Shown: positions 1-64,000, counted from the first letter of the stretch. The stretch: 64,000 nucleotides of DNA from Candidatus Omnitrophota bacterium (GCA_030650425.1 JAUSED010000005.1:78932-142931); one strand, 5' to 3'. The notes: a model not told the origin generated them from the sequence alone. Numbers and translations are program-made.

Positions 1-3000
1 AGGTAAAGGATGATGGCAAAGGGATTAACAAGGAGAAGATTATTAAGCGCGCGGAAGAGTTGGGATTCATCAAAAAAGGCCAAAGGCTTAGCGAGCAGCA
101 AATCCTTAACTTAATATTTCTGCCTGAGGTAAGCGAAGCAAAAGACAGCCGGGAAGGAACGGGAATAGGCTTGGCTACTATTAAGAAGAGCATTGAGGCT
201 GTATGCGGCCAGATAAACGTAAAGAGTAAGACAGGGCAAGGAACCCAATTTAGCTTTAGCCTGCCTTGCGGAGTAGAGCCAGATAAGCTGAAGTCCGGCC
301 TGATAAAATCATTAAAACATAAGCCGTTTGTTATCGAGGTAATCGGAGAAAGAGGGTCTTTTTATAAAGAGGCGGCTCTTTTCTTGACGTGCCTTTTGGG
401 AGCGCGGCCTTTTAACACAGGCTGGCATGCGCGCGCGGCAGTATCTTTATTGTTGAAAGCTATTATGGAAGGCGCGAAGGTAGACAAGAATGATACAAAA
501 GCTGTAGCCGAACTTATGGAAAAATTATTAGAATTAATAGACCGCCTCAGGGAGCCGGTAGTAATCGGCGGCATTGTTACAACCGCTAAGAATGGGAATG
601 CGGTATTGGCTTATCGCGATGAAATTAAATTAGTTACTGACGCCTTAGGCCTCCAGCTTCATAGATTGGTTAATAGCCTGGAAGTGAGCGCGGTAATTGA
701 TGAATTCATAAACAGCGTGGTTAATGGTACTATTGTTTCAGGCCGATACTCAGGCATAATTTTATATACCTCAAAACCGTCTAAACGAAAGGACTCGCTA
801 AAACTCGCGCTCTTGGCTCCTGCGGAAATACGCGCGCAGAGGTTGGGCTGTTCTGTAGAAGATATCAACAAGATAGACAAAAATACAGGTATGGGTGAGG
901 ATTTAAATTATTCCGATGGCATCCTATATATATCAACCGATGATCTTAGCCCGCGTCAGGCCTATCGCAAGGCGCTCGCTATTGTAAGAAAAGAGTTAGT
1001 TAAAGAGTCTTCGCCGCAATCTTCCACCAAACCTCTTTCATCCAGCCCTGCCAGTTCCCCGGTAGAATACGAAAGTAAGCCAGTGGTTTCAGGCGATATT
1101 TCCAGATTGCGCGGTTATTGGTTTATGGAAGCGCCGCGGGAGTATCGAAGGAACGCCCTTCTTTTCGCGGAGAATCACGATGAGCGTCCCGCGCTTGATG
1201 CCTTTAAGAGTATGGAAAAGGCAGAGGCCGCCGCTGTTATTATTCTATCAACAGAGGCGCATATGCTTATCCCGCTTGCCCAAATATACGGGATAAAAAT
1301 GCCTGTTGGCGCGCGCACGGAAATGATGAAATCCCCGGACGCGGGCATTTATCGTTTTAACTATCCACAGCGCCAAGAGGCTGACTTAAAAATAATGTCT
1401 TTCTTTGAACAGGTGCTTCCTATTTTTAGCCAGTCGGTTTTTAGTAAGGGCGATTTATACAGCGCTAAATTAGCTTATCCGGAGGTACATTCTTTAAGAG
1501 GGCTATTTCCGGTGGTGCGCCATTTGCAAGGAGCAGGCGACACAATAGCGGTGATTAATTATTCAGATGGCCGAGAGAAAGTCAGGATAGATTTAGCCAA
1601 AATTTTTGGTTATTATCCCAATCAGGGATTGGCAATTTTAACGCGTCAGCCCAAACTGCGCTATACCAAGAATGTCACTCTTGAATTTAAAGAACCGCGG
1701 ATAGAATTCTCTTTCGGCCCTTACGGCTATGCGATTTTAGGGTTTAGCTCCAGCTCGCCGTTGGAAGAGGAATTCGTATCTCCTACTTCTATGGAGCTTA
1801 ATCCTCACAACTCTTTCTACGGGCAAAAAACGATGATTGATGGCGTGCAGATAGATAAAGTTGTAGCAGCGGGCTTGAATAATTATATACAGGAAAAAGC
1901 ATTAAATACCGCTGACAAAGATAGATTGACTTTTTCTATTGATGGTGAGGCCTTGACGTATGAAATGGTTAAGCTCAAAGAGAGGGTTTTAGCCATAGAC
2001 ACAAGATTAAGCAGTTTGAACATAAAAGAAGCCTTAGCTGATTTATTAATCACAGGCTTAGAGGACGTAGCAGACTTTAATATAGAACAGCTGCCTTTTT
2101 GCTTACATTTTACACTACTTGAGAAATCCCGTTATCTTTTTGAATCTTTACCCGCGCATAATTTCGCAGGTATTAATAGGGGGATACTCGCGTTCACTAA
2201 CCCTCACGCCAGAGATGTTCTTTTGAGGCTGGGATTATGGCATATCTTGCATATTAAGGCAACAACCAAAGGCAGATTGCATGACGGCATTATGAGGCTT
2301 AGGGATGTCGGTGTTGCTAAGAGGTTGATCAAGGAAAGCCGGCTGGGAAGTATCAAAAGATTTATGGCCGCGGTTGAACGAGATGGAGTATTATCGGAGA
2401 ATGCGTTCTTGTTGAATATTCTAAAGGCTTTTTCGACGGAAGAGAAGAGCCCGCAGGATAAAGTGGCTGGTATAAGAGAAAGTATGCGTTGTGATCTCTT
2501 AAATGAACGTCTAAACGCGTTACAAGAAGCAGCTGATAATAATTTAGCAGTTTATCTTGTAGATGATTTATTAGTTTTGCTCCGCGAGAAAGAAGAGCCG
2601 GCCAGGTATAATTTACGCACGCAAGAGGGTAAAGATTGGTATCACGTTAAAATGAATGCTATTTGGCTGTTAGGTAAATTAGAAATATTTCAGGTTGGAA
2701 TAGAAAAAGCTAGGGAGGTCTTGGCCCTTATGCTTGCATTTGGCCTAAGGAGCCCCGCGCCCTGCGTTCATGTCTCAGCTATACTTTCTATTGAATCACT
2801 GGAAAAGAAGGCAAAGGCTTGGCTTAAGCAGGAAGAGGAGAAAGATACATTACTTCCGGGGGCATTACCCGAAGGTGGAGCGGTATCGAGCCCTGTTGAG
2901 GAGGAAGAGATTTTCTTAAGGGAAATTCTGGAAGAGTCTTGTCAAATGGGCTATACGCAGCGGGAGCGCGAGATTTTACAGAGCGCGGCAGAATTTATTT

Positions 3001-6000: not shown

Positions 6001-9000
6001 ATAAACTGCATAGTTTAAAGACTCCCCGTTATTCCCGCGCTGCTGAGAGGCAGAAAGAGAGCCTTTTACAGGCTATTGATTTTATCCAGAAATCTCGGCT
6101 GCCCAAAGAGGTTCCGGGGATTGTCAAATATTTTATTGATGAAATTTGCCGTTTATATTTACCTGAAATTGTAAAAAGCCGCGAAGAGGGGACGCTTAAA
6201 GGAGGCTTGCCGCAACAATCTTCCCAGCTTGATCCGGAAAAATTTTTTAGCTCACCGGTGGGTCCCGAGGCCGACTGGCGGCGGGCCAATTTCTTACCCG
6301 AGACCTCACTGCTCTTTACTATCTTTTCACCTCAGGAGCAAAAGATGGCTCTTAAAAGATACAGAATCTTAACTCGGAATATGGCAGGGATTATCCCGGA
6401 GCATAACACGCCAGAAGCAGAAGAAACCATCAAGGCAATTTATCTCTACGGAGGGTATCTGTACCATGGTATCCCGACAGACATGGATATTGCGTTTATC
6501 AAATCGGCGAAGATTTCGGTTGAGAAGGACGCAGGGATTTCTATGCTTGCCCAGCGCCTCGCTGACACGGTAAGGTTCCGCGGAAAGGGGTCAGGTTCTG
6601 TTGAAGCGGAGAGGCGGTTGGGTATGACAGTGAATACCCGCCTTTATCTAACGGCAGCGGAATTATGGAATAGCGGCTATCAACTCAGGATGCCGTCTGG
6701 TCGGGAAATCTTTAATTTTGTCAGTCAATTGGTCTGGCCGACAGGGGGGAAGGGAAGTTATCTCGCGCAGGCGATCCTGGCTTTGAACCTATTGGATAAT
6801 ACGGTCTTGACCCGGCTAGGGCTGACTATGGCCGATGTCAGGTTAGTTTACTATGCCAGGGCCTTTTATCTTACTCAGAACCCGCCAATCGATATCCAAC
6901 AGGTTATGGATATCAATAAAAATGTTTGGTCACTGGTTAAAAAGATGAAATGCCAGTTTGCCAGTTCAGTCGTAAATAGAGGGGGTAGAAAGGATGCCTA
7001 TGGTTGTTTAATGCGAACTTTAGTTTCTCAACAACATAAACCTGGCTCCAGTTCACCGGTGGAGGTTTCATCTTCAATCGAAAGCTATGCCGTTGTGACG
7101 GATACTGAAAATAATTCTATAGTTTTTCTTCCCATAGTAAACGGCCCATATATTAGAAACTATCTTGGCACAAAAATAATTAGGGGATTGATTAAAAGTT
7201 TAGACCAATGGATAGGTTTTAAGATAGGCGGCAGGGAAGTACCCACTAATGAAGAAGAGGTTCTGCGTTGCCAGAAGATTTTAACACGATTCGTAATGCG
7301 TCGGTCAATGGGGGAAATTCCCATCGTGTCATTGCGAGCGAACGAAGTGAGCGAAGCAATCTCGACGAGATTGCTTCGTCGCTGCGCTCCTCGCAATGAC
7401 AAATTCCCTGGATCGCCCCCGTTCACTGACGCATTACCACGATTCATCTCCGAGGAAGGGGGAGAGGCAGTTGATTTGTCGACTAAGGGATTTGAAGTAC
7501 ATCTAGTCTTATCTTCGCAAGAAACTTCGAAAAAACCTAAACATCTATCCATAGAGGCATTTTTGGCAGTTAACCAGGAAGGCTATGTTGTGCTTGAGAT
7601 AGCCCCTTGGAATAAAGCAGGCCGTTATTTAGGCTTGGCCCATCAATTAAGGGTTTTCTTTTTTCAAAACATTTTATTGTGGAAATATGACCTTGGGCTT
7701 AAGGCTGTTTATAATATGATATTTACTGTGAGTTATAAGACTATTAACGGGTTAAAAAGAAGCGTATTTTTACCAAAAGACCTGCCAGACTTTATAGCTT
7801 ACGATCTTCCTCCTGTAAATATAGCGGTGATAGAGTCCTACCTTCTATCGTATCTTGTCAAGGAAACAGAGAGGGTGGCAGAGTTAGTGGTGAGAGACGA
7901 TTTAACGAAGAATAAAAAACGTTCTGGCTCGCCTATCGCGGCCTCATCGGTTGAGTCATCCGTTAACGGAACAGAGGAAACGGCAAGCGCGGAACTAAGA
8001 TCTATACTTCATAGCCTCAAGAATAAGTTTCTTTCGCTTGTATATTTTTCTGGCCTTTTGTTGCGTAAGGCTGGCCCCTTAAGAATCGAAGAGGATATAC
8101 CATTATTGAGACTGTTGCGAAATGTCATTTTTCGTCATCCTGAGCGAAGCGAAGGATCTCGTTATCGACGAGATTCTTCGGCCTTCGGCCTCAGAATGAC
8201 GCAAAGTCGGGCATTTCGCAACAGTCCCTTATTGCAAGCAAACAGCCCAATTTCATCCCCAATGGAGTTTCATATCGAATGGGCAGGGGCGCTTGACCAG
8301 AATCCGAAAGGGATTATCAGCGCGGCGGGCGAAAGATTTAAAATCTATTTTAATCTCGTATTTAGCGAATATTTCACCGCAGAAGAAGTACTGGCATTTT
8401 TTCCCGACCGGCTCAAAATAGAGATGAAGCCAAATTTTTACTACAAAGGAATAATCCTAGTGGATAAAATTCAGGTAGTAAATATTTATTCACCTGCCGG
8501 GGAATGGGCAAGGACTAACGACAGAGAGCAGCCAATCTATCCGGAGACCAAAAGCAAGGCCTTTAGGTTAGAGGTGCCATTTTATACCCATGATTCTTTA
8601 ATATTTGATAACGATATACACTGGGAAAAAAGGGAACTTTTGCTTTTTTCTCTGCTGATTAAATTTAAGCATCAGGGAGAAGAGAAGGTTATTGAACTTG
8701 AAGGGTATGGAAAAAGCGGGGCCGGCATAGTTGGCCTCCATTTACCTGCTGTAGGTTATTTTAGCGAAAGACTTAAGCAAAGGCTAGAGAATCTATACAG
8801 CGATTATTTAGGAGGCATTGAAAAAGATAACGCGATAACTCTCTTAGTGTATTATACGGAGGTATTAAAGATAGAATATGCTAAAGAATTACTGCTAAGG
8901 ATTGCCAAGGATAGCAACCATTTAATCAGAAAGGATTTGGCTGTAAGCTTAAGGCAGCTGTTAGCGCATGATATTCACGCAGAGATTTTAAATGAATTAA

Positions 9001-12000
9001 TCAATGACGCCGACAGAGAAGTCAGGGAAGAGGCGCTAGTTACCTATTGTGTATATGCTTTGCGCGGTAAATTTTCTAGTGATTTACAAGATCTAAATAA
9101 CTTACCAATGCGTATCTTTTTTTATGCGAAGAGCCTTTTTGTAAAAGAGGGAGAGAGAAAAGAATTAGTAACGATATTAAAACAACCAACAGATACCGTA
9201 AGCTTTCTTGCTGGTTTTTCCGGAGAAGACTTGCGCGGAGGAATTTACAGTAAGGAGCAAGCAGAAGGCTATATTCGTTTATTTAGAGAAGCGGTTGTTT
9301 CTGAAGTAAAGGGATTTTTAAGCACAATAGAAGCAAGAGTAAGAAGGGTAAGCCTTGATGGAAGCAAGGTTGAAGAGGATAAGAAAACAATTATCAGCCT
9401 GATATCGGAAATGAGACGGGAATTAGAAAGGCGGCAGGCTGGCAGCCCGATTTTCGTAGTTCGAGGCCTATCTTTGCGGCAGTATAACCCCGGTTTCAGA
9501 TTGCTGTATTTATCTGGGCATATTTCCAGTTCGCCGATAACCTCCAGAAGCAACAACATAGCAGGAGCGCCTTTTTCTAAGTCATTTTTACAATGGCTAA
9601 GTGACTCAGGTATAGGATTAAGGAGTCCTCCGTCCAAGCTGCTTGCGGCTTTTGTCTTCCTTGCATATCTAGCCGCATCTATTTTCTCGCCAATAGTAAG
9701 CAGAGCAGATTCAGTTCAAACGCCCTCAGGTGGAAAGGCGCCTCAGGAAATTCCGCAGGAAAAACCAAAGCAAGAAGGACAGGCGTCCTTGAAAGCTCCG
9801 GCAAAGGCCGCTAATGATTTAGCGCAAGTAAAATTAAGCGAGGCAATAACTGCTCTCAAGAATAAAAAGAGGCCAGAGGCCGAAGGATTCCTTAATTCTG
9901 CGAAAGAATATTTGTTCGAGGTTAAAGCCGGTAAAATTGTGGCTAAAATTGAAGATCATAAAACTTTGGTAGAATTTGCGGAGCTCTCAGAGCGCCTTCG
10001 CAGGTTCGATGATGCTATTTTGGCTTATAACGCGGCCGCGGGAGTTGTTGAAAAAAAGGATCCGGATTTAGCAGAATATTACAGGTCAATAGCTTCGTCT
10101 CTCGAACCGTTTAAAAAAGGAGAAACGTCCCGTCAGCCGCCTGCGCCTCTATCTCCTGAAGCTTCTAAGAAAGCGGTAACGTTAAGCCCGGAGGAGCAGG
10201 AAAAGCTAAAAAAGACCACCAGGGCCGCATTAGATAAAATCGAAAGATCTTTAGGGACACCTAAAGGTATCCCGATAACGGATGAGCAAAGAAAGGCGGC
10301 GAAGAAGAGTCTTGATGAGGCAAAGGAAAAGTTAGATAAATCACGGATAACTGACTTTGATCTTTATGCTGAAATCGGCAGAATATATAATTTATTAGAC
10401 TTCTATAAAGAGGCAGGAGAAGCAAACGCGAAAGCGCGGGAATCCGTCGCATCAGACGCAGAGAAAGGATTTATTAAAGACCAGATTCAGAAGAACGAGA
10501 TGGACGAGATGAACGCGCCAATAAAGCGCCCCGGCAGCTCGCCGTTAGGCAGTTCCAGCTCAAAAACCTCAAGCCCTATGGAAGATTATGGAAGATTTTT
10601 GGCTTTGGCGGAAGAAATTAGCAAAGTGATTAAAGCTGCACAGGCCGCCATCTTTGATAAGAATAGAGAACAAGGAGTTTTTGAGCTTTATGCGCAAATA
10701 GAGCACGCCGCGAACTTATTTGAAAGTTTTAAACGAATCTTTCATTCTTTTAGAATCACACCTGAGCTTAAAGAGCATTATACGGAGATAATAGTTGCTT
10801 TAGCAATGAATTTCCCGTCGCGAATTGAGCCAGAGTCAAATCTTATCCGAGGAATGGATACAGGCCTTACCGCAGCTGCCGAAAAAGAATTGAGGGCTAT
10901 TTTATCATATAAAGAGGCTAAGCAGGTACTATGGCAAAAACTGCAGCCGTATATTATAGGTTTAGATGAAATTCCTGAGCCTAAACTCAGCTTAGGCCTG
11001 CCCATGGTGATTAAATCGTTTCATAACCTTGATGAAATAAGATATCTCCAGGAAATGGCTGGTAATTTCGAGCTTCAATTCTGTGTGGTTTCGCCTAAAA
11101 GGACGCCTTATCCTTTACTTATTTTTTCAAAAGAGCTTGGGGGTTGGGCTGAAATAAGGTTTGTGCCTTTTGCCTCTGCGGTGGCCCATACCCAAGCTTA
11201 CTTGATTCCTTTGGAAGCAAGTCAAGAAGACGAAAGAAAGGCAGGATTAGTCAACAGAGTTTATCGAATTCCTTTCCTTGTTTTAGGTTTTGGTTCCGGA
11301 AAAGATACTCATTTGGAAATCTCCTGGTTTACAAAAAATGCGCCTTGGTTTCATTACGAGCGGGAAAATCAGGAAGAAATAGTCCGGTTTTTACGCAAGG
11401 TTAATTTCCTGGAGACATCTTCTCCCCTTATTGATAATACCGGTGAGGAATGGACAGATAGAGAACTGGAAATCTGGCGATTGTGGGCAAAAGGCGTAGA
11501 TCGGGAAGCTATAGGCAAGGCATTAAATGAAGGTGAACGTTTTATAAAAAGGGTCATTTCAAAGATTATAACAAAATTTAATATTTCAAAAAGAGGTCAA
11601 ATAGCGCACTTTATCTCTATTAAGGAGGCAAAAAAGTACGGCATAGATTTAGGTATTAGCTTAAAGGAGGCCTTAGATCAGGATTATCTTGCGGCAATTA
11701 AGCTTTATCTGAAAAATGAGCCTCCAATGGATATTGACAAAAAATTCAACAAAAAAGATTCGTGGTTTTTAAAGGCGGTCTTTCCTGTTATGCTTATTTT
11801 AACCAATATGGATATGGAACCTTTAGATGATAAATTCTCTGATAGTTTCCGCCAACGGATTACGGATGTTTTAATTGAGCAAGGAATTTTGGAAAAAGGA
11901 TTTACGATTAAGCCTAAGGAAGTTTTGAGTGAACGGGAGAAAAAGATTTTGTGGTTGTTTATAGCCGGTTACAATCCAAAAGCCATTGCTTTGACGCTTT

Positions 12001-51000: not shown

Positions 51001-54000
51001 ATACACTCTTTGGAGAAGCGGATGATTTTAGCAACTTTGAGGGTTGGGAGAGGGAATATCATTATCATTTAAGATGCACCCACAGTTGGCTTAGCGTTAA
51101 TTACTATAGATGGAATAGTATAAGCGCGCAGATTTTCTCTGAATTAGAAGCGATAGGGGTAAATTTTGATGATGTATTAAAGACAAGGATTAATCCTGCG
51201 AGATTTAGACTGGAATTTGATTGGCAGCATCCTTCTGAGAAGATAGCCAAAACAAGGATTATTGACTATATAACTCCGGGCTGCGACTTTTATACTCCGG
51301 AAAACAAGGCAGATATCATAATTATCAAGGCGTTAGATCAATTTCACATTAACCCGCAGGACATGCTTTCTTTCTTAAATCAAAATGGATTTATAGTTAG
51401 CGATATTTATCTGGAGATCCTAGGAATCAGGCCCGTTGCCTTGAAGCTCAGCCATAAATTTGGATACGCCCATAACTTGCCATTCGGAGAATTAGTTGGA
51501 TTAACTACGGGTACGGATGTATTTTTATACAGGAAAATTTCCGCAGCCACTATTTTTAATGGCCCCTCGCGGATAAGTTCACCTATTAATCGCCAAGGGC
51601 AGGCCCCTCAAGATGAAGGCCTTAATAAACAGATTGAGGCGTTAATCAAGATAGTAGGGACAGGGGACGTCAGGGCATCTATTAAGTTATTCGAGATAGC
51701 AGAAGCAGGAAATTTAGGCCGTGGCTTTGTTACTGAGATTTTTGCCCTTCTGAAAGACGAACGTAGGTCTGCGCGAACCGATGCCGCGGTAGTGCTGCAG
51801 GTTGCAGCCTGCAAAGACATTGAAACAATGCTTGAACTTATTGAGCGGACAATAAATGACGAATCGTTAGCGGATGAACGCTACGATACGCATGGCCGTA
51901 TGACTTGGCCTCAGCGCCTTACCGTAAACATCATTAATGAAAGAAAAGGCCAATACATTTTGGAATCTTTAGAATCATTAAGAGGTAATTCTTTACAAAA
52001 GGATATGGTTATAGATTTTATCTTGGATTATGGCAAGTATATAAACGGCTTCTTTAACTTTGCGATCTTGCTCCTCGATAATAAATTATTAAATGATAAA
52101 CAAATCAACAAGATTATCTATGATGTATTTGGCGCGCCTGTTTCACTAAGTAGAATTCGTAAGGCAGCCATTTTTAGTCAACCTCAAGAAATTCTTCCGA
52201 AAGAATTAGGCCTAAAGATACAGACAGATTCTAAAGTAATTATCCTGTCCGGATGCAATTATCCGTTACTAAGGACAGAGGCTCTGATAGAGGATTTAAG
52301 ACACACATACCACTTCGACAGCCGGGTTTCATTTACGGAATGGCCCGTAGAGGAAACGCCCTTTGGCTACGCATTGGATGCCTATAACTTTTTGAAAGAG
52401 CGCTCTCAAGAAATACCTTCGCTTGGAAAGATGCTGAGAGCGATGGAAAGTCGCTCAGGAGAGATTATCGAGGCTTATAAAGAGGAGCTTTATAAGCCAT
52501 ATCCGAATTGGTATTATCTATTAAAAGAGCTCAATGAGATTATGCATCAGGTCCCTTATGACGCAAAATTACTTTTAGGCATCCTTGATTCTTATGCGAG
52601 AGAGATTTTCCATGAAGCTAATTGGATTAAAACATCGCAAGAGAGCATTCCCGGCACCTATATTATATCTTTATATGGAGGGTTATCTGCGCATGACACA
52701 CCTTGGATTTGCGCGGGAGAGGATTTATCAAGCCTTTTAGGCCGGATATTAAAGGAAAATCAGATTGATTGGCGCGCGGAAGAAGACAAGAGCTTAGCAG
52801 GCCTTAGAAACTATGCATACATTGTATTGCCGCTTTCATTAGTAGGCAGCGGTAACGAGGATTTACTGAAGGCCATAATCGGCATATACTTTTTACCAGA
52901 GATCGGTTCTCTTCGCAAGCCAATGCATTCGCTAAACTTAGAGTATGTGATTTCCCACACTGATTCCTCCAGAAGATTTAGCATCGATTTAAAGAAAATC
53001 ATAGATTCTTTACTAAGTACCTTTCCCAAGAACCTTTCTTCGCCGATTACTCTTGCCTGCGGTAAACCGTTGCAGCTAAATCCCGCCGCCTCGCCGCTGG
53101 CTGATAAAAAAAATCAAGATGAATTCAGGATGTTTGAATTTATGGATTTGTTAAGCCAGGATTTAAATCAACATTCCGCTGAGTTAGAGAAAAATAGCCC
53201 TAAGGTTGCGGTGTTTTGTTCTGCCAGGATTAATTCCGGAAAATATTGGGAACTGGCAAAGGCCTTAGGGGCTTCGCTAGAATCTTCCGGTTATACTATA
53301 ATTACCGGAGCTGGCCCGGGTTTGATGGAGGCGGTTGGCGAGGGCGCAGGCCAAACTATTGGGCTGAATATTAATATGCCGAATAAACAAATTCCTAATT
53401 TTTACGTAAAGGAGTGTTTAGAATTTCACAATTTCTCAATAAGAAAGGCTATATTTATCAAATACGCTGATGCCTTTGTAATCATTCCCGGAGGATTAGG
53501 AACTTTAGATGAGCTTCTTGAGGCCTTAACCTTAAAAGACAGGGGATATATCGATGCCCCAATCATTTTATTAGATAAAGGATTTTATTCAGGTTTATTT
53601 GAATTTCTAGAGGGAGTCGAACAGGCTGGTTTTTTGAGAAAGCCCCTTAAAGAATTATGCGTCCTTGTTGATTCTGTAGATGAAGTTTTGCGATATCTTA
53701 AACTAAATAAGGCGCCTCTCAAGCAGGGGAAAAATAATATAGATATTAAACAGGTTTTGGATAATCTCAAGGAGTCATTGGCCGAACTGCAAGGCATAGA
53801 ATCAGCGGTTGGTATTCTGGGCTCGCATTCGTTTGGGAAAGACTCTTCCTCTTATAGGCAGGCATATAATTTAGCCAGGGGTTTTTCCAGAGGTGGCAGA
53901 AAAATACTTTATAGGGGCTGTCAGGGGATTACCGAAGCAGTTGACAAGGCCATTGAAGCAGAAAAAGGCGTGGGTATATCTTTTTGGGTCCCGGATTATG

Positions 54001-57000
54001 AAAAAATTCAGCCGGTTATAGGTAAACGATTGGTTTCTCTGCACAGGTTCGCGCAGAAGATTCTTTTGATAACGCATAGCAGGCTTGGGCTTATTTTCTT
54101 TGCCGGAGGAATTGGCACGCTCGATATATTATCCGATGCTTTATGTTTGATTCAAAATAAAAAGATACAGGCAATGCCTATTGTATTAGTGAATAGAGAG
54201 TTTTGGCAGCCTTTGGTTAGCTGGCTGGAAACTATTTTGAAATCAGGGGCAATATCCAAGGAGGATATTGAATTAGTTAATCTTGTTAGTACAAATGAAG
54301 AGATAATGAAGATTATCGCCGCATCTTCGGTTTTAGGCGAGCAAGCGCGGGATTCGAGCGAATATCGTTTAAGTTCGCCTGTGAACGAATCCTGCGTAGG
54401 CCAACCCTTAGACAGACCCTCTCAAATTAGTAATGTAGACACTTTACACAACTCATCGCCTGTCAAGCAATTAGGAAAGAAAATGCTTCTGCGGTTAGAT
54501 ACCGATAAAAAGTATTCGAGCTCTCCGGCAATAATAGAAGAGATAGCCGCGGCAATTACAGATTCGCTCAAGCTGACTGATTACTCTGGTTCGCCGTTGT
54601 TCTCCTATACTTTCTGTTTCCCTGCCACAATACGTGGCGGAAGCTCGTCTATGTCCGTTTCACCTGTAACTTATGTAGCCTTGGTGGTTTTATATTCATC
54701 TACCTCGTTTTTGATAACAGAAGGAGCAGGATTATTAGTAAACCAGCTTTTTCTAATTCCGCAAATTATTTGCGCTCCGCCAATAGTAAAATATGCAACT
54801 AAGCCCGTTTCCTCGCCGGTAGGGGCTGTTGGCTTCAGCTCGCCGGTGGAAAAAACAGTTGGAGCGACGGTGGTGACGCGAGGCGCCGCCTCGCCGCTTG
54901 GTGAATGGTCAAGTGATAATCTTAGGCAGCAACTTAAGCAGATTGAAGGGAATGTTTTGAATTTGCTGAAGAAATATTCTTTGCCAGAGTTTACGGATAT
55001 TGTTTTACATCCTGTCGCGTATCGTTCTTTAATCACGTGGTTAAACGCAGTCATCAAAAGCCGTGAAGATATACAAGATTTCAAAAAAATGCTGCAGAGA
55101 ATGGAAAAAGACTTTCTGGGGAGTATTTCCGGATTTGTTGCTATAATTTCTCCTGAAGAAAGAAAATCTTTAGTAGAATCTTTAGAATCCTTTAAGCGGA
55201 AGGCAAACGATAAGTTAAATGGTTTTATTACTGAAGCAAGAGAGCTGTATGGAAGGTTTTTGAAGTTGACGCAGCGGGATTTAGAAAATCGTTTTCCGGG
55301 AGAAACTACTCTTATTCTCTTACGGATAATGAGGACAGAGCCTATTAACCGTGAGTGGAATAGGGTTAGGGAAAATGAACATTTCACTTTAGATCCGTAT
55401 CATGGCTATACAAAATTAGACTGGAGAGTGATTATTGTTGCGCAAGTGCCTTTCGGGAGAATCAAAACAACCCCATGGGTATTGGAATCAAGTAAGACTG
55501 AAGAAGAATTTATTGTTTCCGGAGGCCTTCTAAACGTTGTCCAAACCTTTGATAAAAAAGATAAATGGATTAAGTGGAGAGAAGCAAACAAGGATTATTT
55601 TTATGCCAAGCTAAACTCGGCTTCTTCGCCAATCCTAGAAAATAATCAAAGTCTTCTCGTAGCTGGACGAAGTCCTATCAAATTTATTGGCTTAAGCTTG
55701 CCTGTGGAGGGAAAGCTTAAAGAGGTTTTCCTCTATGATAAGCTAGAAGAGAAACTGGTGCCGGTAGAGGCCAAAATCCTTGATACTCAGGACCCTGAAT
55801 TCAACGGTTTTCAGGATGCTGTAAGGGAGTGGTTAGCCTATTCTAGGGATGGTTATGCTATTGATAAAGCTAAAGACCCTCTAACCGGAGAAATTATTAC
55901 TATTCCTCATATCCGTCCTCTTGCCAGCCAAATTATCCAGAATGGAATCACTACTAAAGAGCACTTTATCGTTTTTAAGACAGCCGAGCAGGGAATTATT
56001 GCCTTTGTTCGCCTAAAGTTAAGGCCGCGCAGTATCCTTGGTGCCGGGTTTATTGTTTCTCCGGTTATCCGGCAAGTTAAACGTTACGATACGGAAACTC
56101 TCTTAATGGCCGTGATTCAGTCAATCATCGAATTTAGCCTTCAACAATTGGGCAGGGTAAGGGTGTGGGCGGATCCAGCTAACCGAAAGATGCTGGATTA
56201 TATTTTGCTATTTGGGCCGATAAGAAGACAAGGAAAATTCCTGGTAACGGACGAGGCCGCGCGAAGAATTCTGTGGTACATCCGTAAAAAGATGGCAGAT
56301 TATACCGCAACTTTAGCTGAGCCGGAAGAGAAAAAGTTGGATGGTTCTATTTCCGGCGCCTCCTCGCCGCTGGATTTAACGGTTGGCTTAAGTATTATCA
56401 TCTCCTATGCCTTATTAGTTCCGGTATTTGATTTATACCTGCGTAGGACTATTCAGCGTAAGACCATAGAAGAATTTAAGAAATTCCCATATCCTGTTTG
56501 GATTATGACATTCGCTTTTCTATTATTAGCATGGAAATTCCCGCCGTTGCACAATATTATTTTTTACCTCACCGCATTTTGTCCCGGCATTTTCCTTTCT
56601 TTGATAACGACACTTTCTTTGGCGACTATTTTTAGCCACCGAAAGACCAAGAAAATCATTATACCTTATTATTTATTGCGGGAAGAAGTGAATTATATGT
56701 GGAGACTATATGTCGTTAATATGAAGATTATTGAAGCCGTTGATATCTTTTTCTCAGCTGTGGCAGTCGCCTTCTTTAGTTATTATACCCATGCAACAGC
56801 TTATTTCATACTAGTAATGCTTCTAAAAAGAGCCGGAGTTCTATATCTAGCCCGAGGGCTCACTAAGGAATTTTCTTTAGAGCTTGAAGAGAGATACGAT
56901 GGGGGCAGGGACTTTATAAAAAAGTTTATCACAACAGAGCAGTTATTAGGAACAGATATTGCGCTTAGAGCAAAGGGGGAGCATAAGATAAGCTATAATT

Positions 57001-60000: not shown

Positions 60001-63000
60001 TTATCCCTGAAATTATTTCTGAAGCTATTGCAGAAGAAGTTCAAAGAATGCCGGCTTGGGAACTTTTATCTGTTTTAGATCTCAAAAAGGCCAAGCTACT
60101 TTTTACTAAAAGCGGTCCTAGAGAGCTTACTGTCCACAAGATTAAAGTGCCAAAGCTTGTAAATAAGTATAAAGCGCCAGAGGGTTTAAGTATTCTGCCG
60201 TATGAACTTTTTGATACGACAGAATTTGAACTTTTATACAATAAAAAAGGATACCTTATCGCGATTTATCCGGTTCTCCCAAACGGATTCCTGATTAAAT
60301 CTGGCGAACGACTCCCTCACTATTTTGATTTTAGTGAATATTATTTTAAAATTCCGGAATTCGGTGATCCGAAAATGATTGAAAAATGGGATGCCTTCGT
60401 AAAGGATGTCGGCAGAGATCGGGAAGCAATACAGGCTTATGAGGATTTAATCGGGATAAAGGGTAAGCTTGAAAGGCGCCCGCGTTGGGTACCTTACATC
60501 TACGCAAATCTTGATTATCGGGATAATTTTCCATTTGCTCGGGCTTTTTACATTGAGATGTTTAGCCGTTTGATTAAAAAAGATGAAATCTCGAATAAAA
60601 TCTCTAGAGACATAATCCGGTCTATTCTTCCTGTTTTTCCGACTGTTTACCATCCGGGATCCCATTTATTGGATGATTGGAAATACATTTTAGCTGTTAC
60701 CAGGCGTCTTGATATCCAAAAAGACCATGATATTTTGGTTGTTGGCCCGGGGAATGGCCTTGACACTTGGTTTGTTTCTCGGCAAACAAGGCGGAAAATT
60801 TATGTTGCGGGAATTAATCCTTTGGAAGTTGCCAATACCAGGGCTGTCGCAAAAATTGCCGGGTTTAAGATAGAAGCCAGGATTTACGACAACATTATTT
60901 CTAAAGACGGCGTGACTGTCTTTAATAAGAGATTTGATCGGATTATCTGGAATATGCCCACATATTATCCGGTTGCCCCTAGAATCCGGGAAAGCCTTGA
61001 AGAATGGGAAGATAATGATTACGACGGTATGATCTTAAGGCGTTTTGCCGGAGGCCTTCCATTACTTCTTAAACCAAATGGAATTGCTTTGGTTTGGAAT
61101 TCCGCTGCCGGAAAACTTTTAGATGAGGTTGAAGAAATCTTAAAAGCAAGAGGAGCGCTAGATGTGGCAGTCGAAAAATACCCGGGTATGACGTATTTAG
61201 CCAATATCGAAATGGGCACGGAAACCATTCCTACCGCGCTTTACTTTATCCGCAAGGGAAAAAATCCGGATGCAGCAAGCGCCTATTGTGTCAGTTCGCC
61301 GCTGAAAGAAATAGTTGGAGCGACGGTGGTGACGCGAGGCGCCGCCTCGCCGGTTTCGGGGGGAATATTCCTAACTATATTATGGCCTAAAGACGGTAAT
61401 ATCTTTAATGCGCTCAAAATCTCTGTCATTAGTAGCGATATTCCTAATCTTGCGGATTCTCATAAGAGCAAGATTGAGGGCATCGTTTGTCAACAAGCCG
61501 GATTGCTTAATGATCAATTGGGCAGTATCAAAGACACTTTCATTCAGCGGCCATATCTTGATGTTCAGTTTAGGGATACTATTTATGGCTATATGACACT
61601 TACTGAGTTCTTTGGTTATTTGCGGATGGGATTTAAGGTAGGAGACAGCTTTATGGGAGGATATATTGTAGATTTCTATGGTTTCGGCAATCATAAGACG
61701 ATGCAGAAGCTCAGCGACTACAATAACAGAAGTATAAGCAATTATTTCTTTTTGCTCGCAGCGCTGAAGAAAATTGGTGGCGTTATCATTGATGCCCAGA
61801 AAGTGGTATATAAATATATTGGAGTCAACGAAGATTTTTTTACCGGATTTGACTTTGGCGAGCATCTAATTATTCAAAGGGCTAAAGTTAGGGGATTCAG
61901 CAAGTATCTTAGCAATGCCGCGTTTAATATGTATGATAGCGCGAGTAACTTCAGTGGTGGTTTTAGGCAACTCAAACCTTATTTCTATCCTCTGATGTTC
62001 GGCAAGGGGAACCTTGGAGAGCGGGCGAATGACCCCTCGTTCATAAATTCCCAGTATAGTCTTAGTCATATTTTTTCTCCTTCTAAAAAAGTATACCACG
62101 CTCTTAACGGGGTTGTCAAGAATATTAGTCTTGCCGCCTCGCCGATAAGGATCTCTCCATTTCTCAGTGACATATTTAGAATGTTTCATATGTTTGAGGT
62201 AAATGAATCTATTTTAAGCGAAGACGGGAAAGAGGCGCAGCAGTGGGTTAAGAAAATCATTGGCACAATGCAGAGGCCCCCTGTCGGCCTTATTACAAAT
62301 AATAATGCAGAAAAGCTCATAGCGCTTATGCCTAATCCACGGAAAATATCTCTCGGTGGTTGGTTTGATCTTAGCAGCCTCAATTTTGGAAGCGATGATG
62401 AATTTGGCTTTGGTTGTTTAAGGCCTTGCCCGCATTGTTCAGAAGGGAATACAAGAGCGCGGGTAACAAATCGCACGCTGCCGCCTGCAATAAAGCTTAT
62501 TGAAGAGATGCGCAAGGAAGGCCAGCAAGATACGTTAAGAGGCCTGAAAACTTATCCCGGAAGGTTTCTGATCCAAGGGTGGAATAACACCGACCTTTTC
62601 TATTGGTGTGATCCTTTCTTTAGAGTCTATTTAGACGGCCTTATTGAATTTATCGCGCGTCATTACAAAGATAGAAAATTCCGCCTGCGGATAGCCACAA
62701 TCGGCCCAAACATAGATGACTGGCGCGCATTTATCGTAGCAAAGAGTATTGACAATCTGGTGCTTCAATATCCTGAGTTAAGAAATAATATATTTAGTCT
62801 ATCCTTGCATTTGGCCTTATTTAGCACCAGAGGGTTTGATTATAATACTATCTCTGCTTTGTATGAGCGCAAGATAAATCCACAGCGGCTGGCTAAGGTT
62901 ATAGATAACTATGTGGCCCGCTACGCAGCTATTATTGGCGTTCTCAAGAATACGCTAAGAACGGTCAAAGTATTTCTGTCAAATGAAAGCAGTGAATTTG

Positions 63001-64000: not shown

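Follow-up and report, generated by a model that had tools for sequence, protein, structure and literature searches.

A stop-free reading frame filling 64 kb of an Omnitrophota genome, with protein-sized modules, a recurrent junction motif and a nested antisense toxin-antitoxin cassette

The DNA analyzed here (the window) is a 64,000 nt stretch of a Candidatus Omnitrophota bacterium contig (GCA_030650425.1 JAUSED010000005.1:78932-142931), whose plus-strand frame starting at nt 3 (frame +3) is continuous and coding throughout its at least 21,332 codons. The first-pass annotation had described this phase as free of stops, and a direct count agrees: it has no TAA, TAG or TGA in 21,332 codons, while the remaining frames have 1,702 and 2,021 stops on the plus strand and 802, 1,561 and 1,194 on the minus strand. 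By simple arithmetic, were stops as dense as in the remaining plus-strand frames (8%), the probability of finding none would be about 10^-770. An alternative genetic code is irrelevant because none of the three stop codons is present. Frame +3 ranked first in 71 of 71 intervals of 900 nt by cross-validated codon log-likelihood (mean score +0.25 bits per codon versus -0.72 and -0.88), and its translation is not low-complexity, since its amino-acid composition is normal and its entropy is about 4.0 bits along the whole length. The first 88 residues are the C-terminal half of a CheA P4 ATPase domain (all of the top ten PDB matches are CheA, E 6e-15), so the window begins in mid-domain and the open reading frame (ORF) continues upstream. 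An RNA explanation was set aside, as no Rfam family and no tRNA was found in the window.

Could the contig be a chimera in which unrelated fragments were joined in frame? The parent contig is absent from the GTDB representative genomes and JGI metagenome contigs searched, in which a query joining both window ends found no match. The ORF, however, offers no repeats on which a mis-join could form: it contains one trivial tandem repeat and only seven paralogous pairs (26-45% identity). GC content and skew are uniform across the 64 kb, the coding score is continuous, one junction motif (below) is spread along the whole length, and chance stop-free in-frame joins over this distance are not credible. 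Moreover, independent short contigs from other samples repeat the local order junction, antisense cassette, junction (below). We consider a chimeric assembly extremely improbable.

Along the giant ORF, enzyme and regulator domains of cytoplasmic type follow one another, mostly with intact catalytic motifs. They comprise signaling enzymes, transcription-factor helix-turn-helix (HTH) domains, methyltransferases, radical SAM, LOG, peptidase-like and TPR domains, and about 18 transmembrane (TM)-like segments accompany them (Table 1). A profile search of the translation recognized about 20 distinct Pfam families, none of them dominant (most numerous are the XRE HTH domains, with 3-4 copies, and TPR, with several short stretches), and together these domains span about 12% of the residues. 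The last plus-frame Pfam domain ends at nt 59,705, so that the first-pass annotation's domain series from nt 3 stands up to that point, but not in its extension past 62 kb, where this frame has no match. A second, weak HD_4 match lies at aa 1873-1905, a TM cluster (aa 6456-6600) precedes the GGDEF domain, the radical SAM cluster motif has the form CxxxCxxC, both PrmA-like methyltransferase copies keep a SAM-binding loop, and the M48 domain sits among TM-like segments (aa 16343 and 16500-16540). The 18 TM-like segments, as called by a hydropathy scan only (Kyte-Doolittle mean of at least 1.8), form about nine clusters and make up about 1.6% of the residues; in six of the nine clusters the first helix lies 3-38 aa after a junction.

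Table 1. Coordinates of features in the 64,000 nt window.
Feature	Position (nt)	Strand	Remarks
Stop-free frame, internal fragment of a giant protein-coding gene	3..63998	+	21,332 codons; open at both window edges
CheA-type (P4) HATPase_c, C-terminal half	3..266	+	Cut by window edge; Pfam HATPase_c 4.6e-9, profile 42-108 of 111
HD_4 and RelA/SpoT-like region (aa 995-1317)	2985..3953	+	HD_4 1e-12; RelA_SpoT 1.6e-4, below cutoff
Near-perfect hairpin, 145 nt, MITE-like palindrome	7293..7437		MFE -88.1 kcal/mol, z -11.75
Near-perfect hairpin, 117 nt (39 codons)	8110..8226		MFE -70 kcal/mol, z -9.43
Module copy 1 (aa 3514-3810), helical bundle and JAMM/MPN-like domain	10542..11432	+	Degenerate metal site HTQ
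GerE/LuxR HTH after module copy 1	11454-11612	+	GerE 1.2e-10
GGDEF diguanylate cyclase	20544..21026	+	GGEEF intact (aa 6929); Pfam 6.7e-42; PDB WspR/PleD ~1e-31
Module copy 2 (aa 10335-10665), helical bundle and JAMM/MPN-fold domain	31005..31997	+	JAMM/MPN part nt 31506-31958; E..HTH..D kept
Array of 3-4 XRE-type HTH domains	32148..32882	+	HTH_31 1.2e-22, HTH_3 9.7e-21; internal duplication
GNAT acetyltransferase domain	38457..38717	+	Pfam 5.1e-5, above cutoff; RHNGYG motif
Radical SAM domain	43572..44018	+	Pfam 8.5e-11; cluster motif CNLQCAPC
Calcineurin-like metallophosphoesterase domain	46278..46664	+	Pfam 7.1e-5, above cutoff
M48 (HtpX/Ste24-type) peptidase domain	49263..49655	+	Pfam; HEITH motif (HExxH)
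PrmA-like class I methyltransferase, copy 1	49971..50246	+	Pfam; DAGTGDG
Two LOG/SLOG (Lysine_decarbox) domains	53202..54311	+	Pfam 2e-49; PDB TT1465 6.9e-39; first keeps GGLGTLDE
39-nt junction element GTTGGAGCGACGGTGGTGACGCGAGGCGCCGCCTCGCCG	54858..54896	+	Encodes VGATVVTRGAASP; 100% identical to nt 61314-61352
PrmA-like methyltransferase paralogue	59412-59705	+	Pfam; internal paralogue search; DAGCGEG
Left copy of perfect 12-nt direct repeat GCCGCCTCGCCG flanking cassette	61341..61352	+	Reads AASP in giant frame
PIN-domain (VapC-type) toxin gene, intact	61380..61865	-	161 aa; Pfam PIN 3.2e-15, profile 1-118 of 120
AF2212-like antitoxin gene	61866..62069	-	67 aa; ATG at 62069; Pfam AF2212-like 1.3e-8
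Sigma-70-type promoter of cassette	62090..62119	-	TTGACA, 18 nt, TG-TATACT; 11/12 consensus matches
Right copy of GCCGCCTCGCCG flanking cassette	62133..62144	+	Spacing 792 nt = 264 codons
GCCGCCTCGCCG copies away from cassette	38865, 41823, 50484, 53085, 54885, 59964, 63474	+	In frame
Junctions 1-18 (starts of 4-residue match)	1041, 1053, 1752, 2886, 4698, 6249, 7050, 8253, 9528, 10536, 10569, 11418, 13620, 15411, 15447, 18051, 18108, 18630	+	
Junctions 19-36	19305, 21054, 23643, 23727, 24492, 24630, 27054, 28176, 30159, 31026, 31968, 33546, 36681, 36714, 37719, 38868, 39783, 40806	+	
Junctions 37-54	41751, 41826, 41880, 42771, 42837, 43383, 46026, 46206, 48009, 48054, 48930, 49230, 50487, 50793, 51576, 53037, 53088, 54372	+	
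Junctions 55-70	54453, 54519, 54810, 54837, 54888, 55623, 56361, 57375, 58341, 59139, 59967, 61293, 61344, 62136, 63453, 63477	+	Whole set within 1041..63488

Two copies of one module in the chain combine a helical bundle with a JAMM/MPN-like domain. Junction motifs at aa 3512/3523 and 3806 delimit copy 1, and both junctions flanking copy 2 lie in linkers of predicted pLDDT<50 in a structure model of one module, in which the JAMM/MPN domain has the MPN fold. The E, H, H and D of the JAMM-like zinc site are conserved in 90-100% of 16 aligned module sequences; HxH and D stand one residue farther apart than in the canonical E...HxHx7Sx2D, and copy 2 has Gly for Ser. Compared with the JAMM/MPN+ metalloproteases (Rpn11, CSN5, BRCC36, AMSH, PfJAMM1 and the bacterial BilC/Cap3), this candidate domain is joined at its N-terminal side to a large helical bundle, and it has no Pfam JAB or Prok-JAB match at E<=1e-3 in tiles spanning either copy. 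No ubiquitin-like partner of the module was seen, and a locus search with a narrower module alignment found one locus only. Homologous modules elsewhere occur also as stand-alone genes (P0015), and in other Omnitrophota proteins their flanks are protein-specific motifs (RSLGE, GLEE, SE[AL]R, LRPLAAGE).

An exhaustive HMMER search with the giant ORF gave only 31 weak matches. Its named relatives (P0013, P0003, P0007 and P0015) are Omnitrophota MAG proteins, two of which fill whole contigs; the relatives are distant (24-36% identity), and there is no collinearity with Omnitrophota fragments beyond isolated common modules. On sequence grounds an Omnitrophota origin is most probable, an assignment that relies on these distant relatives and on the junction motif shared with P0013 (below). 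A word-indexed homology search with 1,000-aa chunks found no match, which we do not read as orphan status because the method gives a false negative for the LOG region, where homology is clear in Pfam (2e-49) and PDB (7e-39). The continuous coding, the genuine domains and the Omnitrophota MAG relatives thus uphold the view that the window is an internal fragment of a gene that exceeds 64 kb and resembles the giants of Omnitrophota, and the recoded antisense cassette (below) adds evolutionary evidence for it. Its content had also been called unusual, and this is not supported, since multi-enzyme giant ORFs have already been described and GGDEF domains were noted in many of them (West-Roberts et al. 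2023, bioRxiv 10.1101/2023.11.21.568195).

The giant ORF is best read as a member of that described multi-enzyme, membrane-anchored class. Multi-enzyme Omnitrophota giants (class 1) reach 147,155 aa (Nielsen & Lui 2026, bioRxiv 10.64898/2026.06.07.730766), and like them the window ORF is longer than 10,000 aa, has many Pfam families with none dominant, and has methyltransferase, HATPase_c, GNAT, HD, radical SAM and TPR domains that match their co-occurrence modules 1 and 2, near-unique sequence and few tandem nucleotide repeats. The class has TM helices scattered along the chain (about 2% of residues), to which the TM-like segments of the window may correspond. Its giants are further marked by an N-terminal signal peptide or C39/S8 peptidase, a SecA_DEAD domain, and a T2SS-like locus and PilZ genes beside the gene. 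The archaeovorin type is represented by a 39,678 aa protein of Velamenicoccus archaeovorus LiM (West-Roberts et al. 2023; Seymour et al. 2023, PMC10066038), and the window resembles it in that a giant ORF combines methyltransferases with peptidase and GGDEF domains and, in place of its many TM helices, has TM-like segments. That type is, however, defined by glycosyl transferases, glycosyl hydrolases, NUDIX and SecA_DEAD, whereas the content of the window is signaling and regulatory rather than carbohydrate-active: at E<=1e-3 the 64 kb have no match to a GT, GH or NUDIX family, and SecA_DEAD was also undetected there, the rest of the gene lying outside the window. SecA, C39 and S8 likewise have no match inside the window, which holds neither gene end nor neighboring genes. 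With viral polyproteins and PKS/NRPS megasynthases the ORF shares many autonomous units and short stereotyped linkers, but this is a resemblance of layout only, as carrier-protein logic is absent and the modules have no functional relation to one another.

A recurrent junction of the form [SA][SA]SP followed by V/L/I joins these protein-sized modules. The core motif, [SA]SP[VLIAM], ranks top in an unbiased 4-mer scan of the giant ORF and occurs at 70 sites versus 2.7 expected (the maximum in 200 shuffles was 9); none of the 70 falls within a recognized domain, versus 8.4 expected. Median spacing is 283 aa, and what lies between one junction and the next is as long as an ordinary protein (median 283-466 aa). 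The junction is kept at the boundaries of paralogous modules within the ORF, and the same motif is carried by P0013 and P0022. The residue after the proline is V/L/I/A/M throughout, with acidic residues preferred next. All six serine codons are in use at the junctions, yet TCG-CCG is strongly over-used (P 1.6e-22). The 12-mer GCCGCCTCGCCG, which encodes AASP, has 9 copies in the window and GCCTCGCCG has 15, all on the plus strand and in the giant frame, and two 39-nt junction elements are identical although the modules flanking them are unrelated to each other. The share of this DNA-uniform form rises in the 3' direction along the window (6/22, 7/17 and 20/31), and the strong nucleotide uniformity at many sites contradicts a constraint on the peptide only. 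Junctions were also considered as RNA or DNA hairpins and rejected: their mean z is -0.34 against their own shuffles, with z<-2 at only 2 of 70 sites, and their lower MFE follows from their higher GC.

Is the chain, then, a polyprotein that a co-evolving protease cuts at the [SA][SA]SP junctions into about 40-70 ordinary-sized proteins? West-Roberts et al. (2023, 10.1101/2023.11.21.568195) themselves left cleavage into smaller products as an open question and called the cleavage points not known, which blocked analysis. The ORF encodes candidate proteases in cis, namely the JAMM/MPN-like module (E..HxH..D) and the M48 module (HExxH); the junction is conserved far beyond the need of a flexible linker, lies solely between domains (in low-confidence linkers on both sides of the modeled module) and delimits segments of the size of ordinary proteins, and the nearby first TM helix in six of nine clusters resembles an N-terminal signal anchor. 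The existence of module homologues as stand-alone genes, and of others with their own protein-specific flanking motifs, is also consistent with cutting. Against it, known JAMM enzymes are isopeptidases or cut after the Gly-Gly of ubiquitin-like domains and are not known to cut S-S-P sites, and module copy 1 has lost a metal ligand. A protease site would not need the repeated 12-mer or the TCG-CCG bias, and such strong conservation of nucleotides points to an origin at the DNA level. We regard processing at the junctions as a possibility to be taken seriously, though a rather unlikely one.

Two near-perfect hairpin elements, each single copy in the window, are read through in the giant frame, and the 117-nt element stops just ahead of the junction at aa 2751. 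Rickettsia palindromic elements are reportedly selfish palindromic DNA inserted in frame in protein-coding genes, and the two elements are like them in being long palindromes within an ORF that would be translated as extra peptide with the frame unbroken. They differ in that their sequences are unrelated, they are two single-copy elements in the window, and the host is not Rickettsia.

Near its 3' end the window carries two abutting minus-strand genes that look like a functional AF2212-like/PIN toxin-antitoxin operon, as predicted from sequence. The first-pass annotation had taken almost all minus-strand ORFs for low-complexity shadows, but nt 61380-62069 is no shadow and holds this operon. 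A search for further antisense or out-of-frame genes gave no Pfam match at E<=0.01 in the 37 other off-frame segments of at least 95 aa. The toxin scores 57.2 bits (Pfam cutoff 23.6) and the antitoxin 35.6 bits (cutoff 21.6). The antitoxin gene lies upstream in the same orientation, with its stop (61866-61868) abutting the toxin ATG at 61865 and a Shine-Dalgarno (SD) sequence, AAGGAG, 7 nt ahead of its own ATG. The toxin has 44 homologues, the best of them 75% identical over full length (E 2.3e-71), and in a 10-sequence PIN family alignment D14, E52, D128 and D149 are invariant and D147 nearly so; these acidic positions are assigned to the catalytic site of PIN domains. In its abutting small genes, antitoxin first, full-length PIN domain, own promoter and ribosome binding site, and in the ordinary toxin-antitoxin islands that house its close free-standing relatives, the cassette resembles type II VapBC-like modules. 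Unlike them, it lies wholly inside another ORF (61,380-62,119 with its promoter), antisense to the giant frame and codon-aligned with it, opposite a predicted passenger segment of the giant protein (aa 20460-20706), and it is purged of TTA, CTA and TCA, a nested and purged state common to a clade of related cassettes.

Of the cassette's codons, only TTA, CTA and TCA would place a stop in the giant frame. The cassette uses none of them among its 22 Leu and 14 Ser codons, whereas usage in the host ORF is 42% and 14% (P ~8e-7), and in a control set of 34 low-GC PIN loci the median count is 6 and no locus has fewer than 2. Five relatives of the cassette (L004, L005, L088, L090 and L091), found in other samples, also have none, and their antisense frames are open for 281-369 codons, in four cases across the whole contig (these contigs are about 1 kb long and so display an open antisense frame, not giant size); the free-standing relatives L092, L006 and L007 have 8-17 such codons. 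These relatives share the two-gene antitoxin-toxin layout, and the nested cassettes group in one clade of a neighbor-joining tree (without support values). When the window is compared with L004, nucleotide identity at the first, second and third PIN codon positions is 0.75/0.82/0.46, and amino-acid identity is 67% for PIN versus 39.5% for the giant-frame peptide. Such comparisons show purifying selection on the cassette's own protein sequence, and the recoding of an antisense cassette without stop-complement codons in six diverged sequences shows that continuity of the giant frame is also under selection.

Might the open frame nevertheless not be translated end to end, so that internal starts serve an operon-like array, or the ORF is decaying or non-functional? 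It has 86 in-frame start codons with SD-like sequence upstream, and its Pfam coverage is limited (above). Separate proteins, however, need stop codons, of which the 64 kb have none, and the catalytic motifs are intact. Operon-like internal initiation was rejected, as junctions show no enrichment of SD plus start signals behind them (13 versus 9.9 expected). The cassette recoding in six lineages amounts to selection against stops in this frame, which is hard to explain if it is not read through, and the giant ORF of V. archaeovorus has peptides mapped to it (PMC10066038). We find this alternative very unlikely.

The cassette also bears on the origin of the junctions, as its perfect 12-nt flanking repeat is the junction itself and is spaced by a multiple of 3, as is the equivalent repeat in L004 (16 nt, spacing 903 nt). 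Along with the plus-strand, in-frame copies of GCCGCCTCGCCG and GCCTCGCCG, the complete identity of the 39-nt elements between unrelated modules and the 3' increase in DNA-uniform junctions, this would fit junctions that are nothing more than scars of cassette insertion, be they target-site duplications or recombination sites, with the peptide merely a tolerated linker. The 5' junctions, however, keep S-S-P-[VLI] with all six serine codons, and AGY and TCN serine codons cannot be interconverted by single synonymous changes; this codon range, the V/L/I/A/M after the proline and the acidic preference together argue that the peptide, too, is constrained. Scars alone would also leave unexplained why flanks are identical within a lineage and different between lineages. 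That the junctions are scars and nothing else we judge unlikely.

The best explanation, and in our view a highly probable one, is a single real giant gene: a chain of modules with junctions, its open frame selected and read through, that grows by cassettes. Ribosomes would read through the entire ORF, and both the segment facing the cassette and the pair of in-frame hairpins would yield tolerated passenger peptide. Growth, less firmly, would come from gene-sized cassettes that enter in frame at junctions already present and duplicate the junction sequence in doing so, so that one lineage-specific junction would come to flank all modules. The product would be either one tethered, membrane-anchored enzyme array or a chain cut at the junctions. 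This explanation has a difficulty: flanking repeats are identical within a lineage although the cassettes have diverged by about 33% between lineages, so the insertion model requires homogenization or nucleotide-level selection.

A broader reading joins several of these steps. The giants would grow by in-frame cassettes at a self-propagating junction, a 12-16-nt target duplication encoding a lineage-specific [SA][SA]SP-type linker; read-through selection would be strong enough that a foreign operon inserted backward was kept and recoded into a dual-coding segment; and the junctions would be bacterial polyprotein processing sites. Taken as a whole, this combination seems to us doubtful. The junction motif, the recoded nested toxin-antitoxin operon and the in-frame hairpins seem not to have been reported previously, as a text search of Nielsen & Lui and of West-Roberts et al. 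found no mention of them.

If none of these extra features generalizes, the window is an ordinary addition to a class already known. Neither of the two papers on giant bacterial genes settles whether such ORFs are really read as a single unit or whether their product is cleaved. On the first question the recoded antisense operon is a natural experiment on selection for an uninterrupted frame, and provides strong indirect evidence that ribosomes read through the giant frame. On the second, the stereotyped junction offers concrete, testable module boundaries for giant proteins, usable for proteomic terminus searches, as structure-prediction units and in reconstructing gene growth. A codon-aligned antisense toxin-antitoxin operon kept across a clade would be an unusually clear case of long-term dual coding in bacteria.

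Counting stop codons in the frame whose codons start at nt 3 (frame +3, the giant frame) gave no TAA, TAG or TGA in 21,332 codons, and the frame is open at both window edges, which confirms the claim of the first-pass annotation that the whole window is a single stop-free frame. The other five frames contain from 802 to 2,021 stops, and at the 8-9.5% stop density of the other two plus-strand frames the chance of a stop-free frame +3 is about 10^-770. Its translation has an ordinary globular composition, with an entropy of ~4.0 bits in every 200-residue block; frame +3 was ranked first by a cross-validated codon model in 71 of 71 windows of 900 nt, and the GC content (38-45%) and positive GC skew are uniform across the window. 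The giant ORF contains one trivial tandem repeat and only seven internal paralogous pairs (26-45% identity), so it is not a repeat array and holds nothing for an assembler to mis-join. The window opens within a CheA-type P4 ATPase domain, whose C-terminal half makes up residues 1-88, and the gene therefore extends upstream of the window.

The giant frame is a continuous, coding and modular ORF with relatives in Omnitrophota. It was scanned against Pfam in 24 overlapping 1,000-aa tiles. From the 5' end the matches are HATPase_c, HD_4 with a weak RelA/SpoT region, then a weak CheR, a GerE/LuxR HTH, TPR stretches and a strong GGDEF (confirmed against PDB sequences, ~1e-31), followed by 3-4 XRE HTH domains, GNAT, radical SAM and metallophosphoesterase, and lastly an M48 peptidase, two PrmA-like methyltransferases and two LOG/SLOG domains. 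The first-pass annotation had placed domains from nt 3 to beyond 62 kb; the CheA-type start at nt 3 stands, but the last plus-frame domain ends at nt 59,705 and the tile scan recognised none past that point. Most of the enzymes checked retain their catalytic signatures intact (GGEEF, CxxxCxxC, HExxH, GGxGTxxE, both SAM loops, the R..G.G motif of GNAT and the G2 box of HATPase). Pfam covers only ~12% of the residues, and a hydropathy scan found 18 TM-like segments in about nine clusters. PDB sequences (7e-39) as well as Pfam (2e-49) show an unmistakable LOG domain in the region 51576-54872, yet a word-indexed protein search returned no match there. The candidate list of that search appears to fill up when queries are long, and its empty results for 1,000-aa chunks are therefore no proof of orphan status.

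The parent contig is absent from both the GTDB representative genomes and the JGI metagenome contigs. An exhaustive HMMER search of 1.84 billion representatives with aa 3500-4600 gave only 31 matches, the best at 2.8e-22 and all at 24-36% identity; those with a named source are Omnitrophota MAG proteins. Two of the matched proteins, P0013 and P0007, each span a whole contig and so are themselves fragments of larger ORFs. Across the classes of Omnitrophota, giant ORFs of >20 kb are a common feature, and a 39,678-aa ORF of V. archaeovorus is matched by peptides (PMC10066038); ORFs of up to 85,804 aa (bioRxiv 10.1101/2023.11.21.568195) and 147,155 aa (bioRxiv 10.64898/2026.06.07.730766) have been described, in catalogues of 46 giants and 916 long proteins, respectively. 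In the latter work a multi-enzyme class is set up, together with a domain module for signalling and regulation (methyltransferase, HATPase_c, GNAT, HD), so the domain content, first taken to be unusual, is typical of the class. The core of the first-pass annotation, a giant-gene fragment of Omnitrophota type, is supported, and the ORF is a sequence-unique addition to an already known class. An example of the surroundings downstream of such a gene is seen at the 3' end of the truncated Omnitrophota ORF P0003 (GCA_028711765.1, JAQTRP010000019.1), which is adjoined by two 185-aa genes and then by the housekeeping operon nusA, infB, rbfA, truB, ribF, rpsO, pnp. In many of the matched proteins (P0001, P0002, P0005, P0008, P0010, P0011, P0013, P0014, P0016 and P0023) a ~65-aa repeat, matched by window ~12480-13260 (aa ~4160-4420) and with a consensus like 'L.G.L.GFGY.V.YIS..YKLY.HY...G.D....F..LL', occurs in tandem, apparently as a still uncharacterised repeat family shared by these multi-module proteins.

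The modules of the giant ORF are separated by a stereotyped junction peptide, [SA]SP[VLIAM], which occurs 70 times against 2.7 expected (maximum of 9 in 200 shuffles). Its variants also top an unbiased 4-mer scan (SSSP 18 against 0.24 expected, SSPV 15 against 0.20, AASP 13 against 0.29). Recognised domains contain none of the 70 sites, where 8.4 would be expected; successive sites are a median of 283 aa apart, or 466 aa if only the stricter SSP form is taken and sites within 60 aa are merged. In six of nine TM clusters the first helix follows a junction by 3-38 residues, diverged internal paralogues retain the motif at the same boundaries, and the AlphaFold model of a complete module (pLDDT 85.4) places both flanking junctions in terminal stretches of low confidence (residues 1-8 and 320-331). 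Numerous sites, chiefly in the 5' part, draw on all six serine codons, AGY as well as TCN, yet keep S-S-P followed by V/L/I, which shows a constraint on the peptide.

The same motif occurs six times in P0013 against 0.2 expected and twice in P0022. Homologues of the JAMM-like module (below) in other Omnitrophota proteins carry other, protein-specific flanking motifs where the window has SSP[VLI] in the alignment: by protein set these are RSLGE (P0003), LRPLAAGE (P0024), SE[AL]R (P0020) and GLEE (P0004/P0017/P0021). RSLG in P0003, LRPL/RPLA in P0024 and GLEE in P0021 are significantly enriched; SE[AL]R was noticed by eye only. It seems that junctions are alike within one protein and differ from lineage to lineage. 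The module itself, a helical bundle plus a JAMM/MPN-like domain that Pfam does not recognise, is present twice in the window; copy 2 (aa 10335-10665) retains HTH and copy 1 (aa 3514-3810) has HTQ. In another Omnitrophota MAG it forms a gene of its own (594 aa). The module is a candidate peptidase whose only tie to the junctions is co-occurrence. Stand-alone relatives (P0004, P0006, P0015, P0017, P0018, P0011; L003 246-2030) have a signal-peptide-like N-terminus and then an L-R-x-P type motif (FALRPP, ALRQP, MLRPMS, YLRAPL), a motif perhaps related to the junctions of the giant ORFs. For the junction peptide three roles are conceivable: a cleavage site in a polyprotein, a required linker, or mostly a scar.

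The junctions are also biased as DNA. In 43 of 70 junctions TCG encodes the Ser that precedes Pro, against 12% globally (P 1.6e-22), and CCG encodes the Pro in 45 of 70 against 31% (P 7e-9). GCCTCGCCG and GCCGCCTCGCCG are present in 15 and 9 copies, always on the plus strand and in frame, where 0.004 are expected. The TCG-CCG share climbs along the window from 6/22 before aa 8000 through 7/17 in the middle to 20/31 after aa 14000, and all nine copies of GCCGCCTCGCCG lie past nt 38,800; the rise may be an age gradient of module addition. A 39-nt junction element encoding VGATVVTRGAASP is 100% identical at two places 6.4 kb apart whose adjoining modules are unrelated, and its GC content is 72% against 41% for the gene. 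It includes a small palindrome, GCGAGGC-GCC-GCCTCGC. A structural RNA role for the junctions was not supported.

Coordinates of junction, cassette and hairpin features in the window
Feature	Position (nt)	Strand	Details
39-nt junction element, first copy	54858-54896
39-nt junction element, second copy	61314-61352
PIN toxin ORF	61380-61865	-	full-length PIN domain, 3.2e-15
AF2212-like antitoxin ORF	ATG at 62069	-	abuts PIN upstream; 1.3e-8
Shine-Dalgarno AAGGAG	7 nt before antitoxin ATG at 62069	-
Near-consensus promoter	62119-62090	-	TTGACA, 18 nt, TG-TATACT
Near-perfect hairpin	7293-7437		translated in frame; -88 kcal/mol, z -11.8
Near-perfect hairpin, 39 codons	8110-8226		translated in frame; ends just before junction; -70 kcal/mol, z -9.4

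Almost all minus-strand ORFs had been dismissed as shadows, but among the longest minus-strand ORFs tested there is one real gene locus, the toxin-antitoxin (TA) operon at 61380-62119 (the cassette); 37 further off-frame segments of 95 aa or more in the window have no Pfam match. For the PIN protein of the cassette 44 homologues were found, the best with 75% identity (E 2.3e-71). In the giant frame this stretch reads as aa 20460-20706, and the two are codon-aligned, so TTA, CTA and TCA are the only codons that could stop the giant frame. None is present among the 22 Leu and 14 Ser codons of the cassette (P ~8e-7), although in the host ORF such stop-complement codons account for 42% of Leu and 14% of Ser codons. 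As a control, 80 more distant PIN loci were used: the 34 with GC of 45% or less have a median of 6 TTA/CTA/TCA in the PIN gene alone (minimum 2), and zero counts occur only at 57-64% GC. The antisense frame is open over the PIN gene in 9 of the 80, all high-GC. The GC of the nested cassettes runs from 0.51 down to 0.40, the value in the window.

Close relatives of the cassette from other samples (codon counts are for the cassette)
Locus	PIN identity to window	TTA/CTA/TCA	Antisense aligned frame
L004	66%	0	open, 369/369 codons
L088	58%	0	open, 331/331 codons
L005	57%	0	open, 281/319 codons
L090	52%	0	open, 354/354 codons
L091	52%	0	open, 305/305 codons
L092	52%	17	not open (7 codons)
L006	51%	8	not open (20 codons); ordinary TA island
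L007	51%	16	not open (27 codons); ordinary TA island

The samples behind the five open loci are SRR22388286 (L004), ERZ5996431 (L005), ERZ27254759/ERZ4903185 (L088), ERR3478686 (L090) and SRR32573210 (L091). An intact antisense operon purged of stop-complement codons is found in a clade of relatives: in a neighbour-joining tree, built without support values, the window and the nested cassettes form one clade and the free-standing ones its sister. Translated on the antisense strand, L004 and L005 align to the giant frame of the window (35% identity, E 1.5e-51, and 27%, E 7e-26), and in both SSP junctions adjoin the cassette. The cassette is flanked in the window by a perfect 12-nt direct repeat, GCCGCCTCGCCG, which is an AASP junction (spacing 792 nt, or 264 codons), and in L004 by a perfect 16-nt repeat encoding RASSP (spacing 903 nt). 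Between the window and L004 nucleotide identity at the three PIN codon positions is 0.75, 0.82 and 0.46, and the PIN proteins are 67% identical against 39.5% for the giant-frame peptide over the same DNA, so selection preserves the toxin sequence, whereas the giant frame is merely kept open.

Each of the two in-frame hairpins is single-copy within the window. The peptides that they encode, '..LRRCAPRNDKF..' and '..HPERSEGSRYRRDSSAFGLRMTQ..', suggest palindromic mobile elements that are read through and tolerated as additional residues. In their behaviour the hairpins resemble Rickettsia palindromic elements. They would be further foreign DNA tolerated only in frame-preserving form.

Continuity of the giant frame is very probably under selection, and the simplest reason, which we regard as well supported, is that ribosomes read through it. 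A junction was probably the entry site of the cassette, whose donor may have had a higher GC content and an antisense frame open by chance, since the nine control loci open over the PIN gene are all high-GC; after entry the cassette probably evolved under the dual constraint. More speculatively, all modules might have been added in the same way, with junction duplication; this would account for one junction sequence per lineage and for the apparent 5'-to-3' gradient of uniformity, although by itself it does not explain how flanks stay identical within a lineage. The recoded antisense TA operon and the junction signature, or any junction-like motif, are mentioned in neither main giant-gene paper (10.1101/2023.11.21.568195; 10.64898/2026.06.07.730766). 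These two features make the gene more than ordinary, and they open two questions to direct tests: where the modules of giant ORFs begin and end, and whether such an ORF is read as a single unit.
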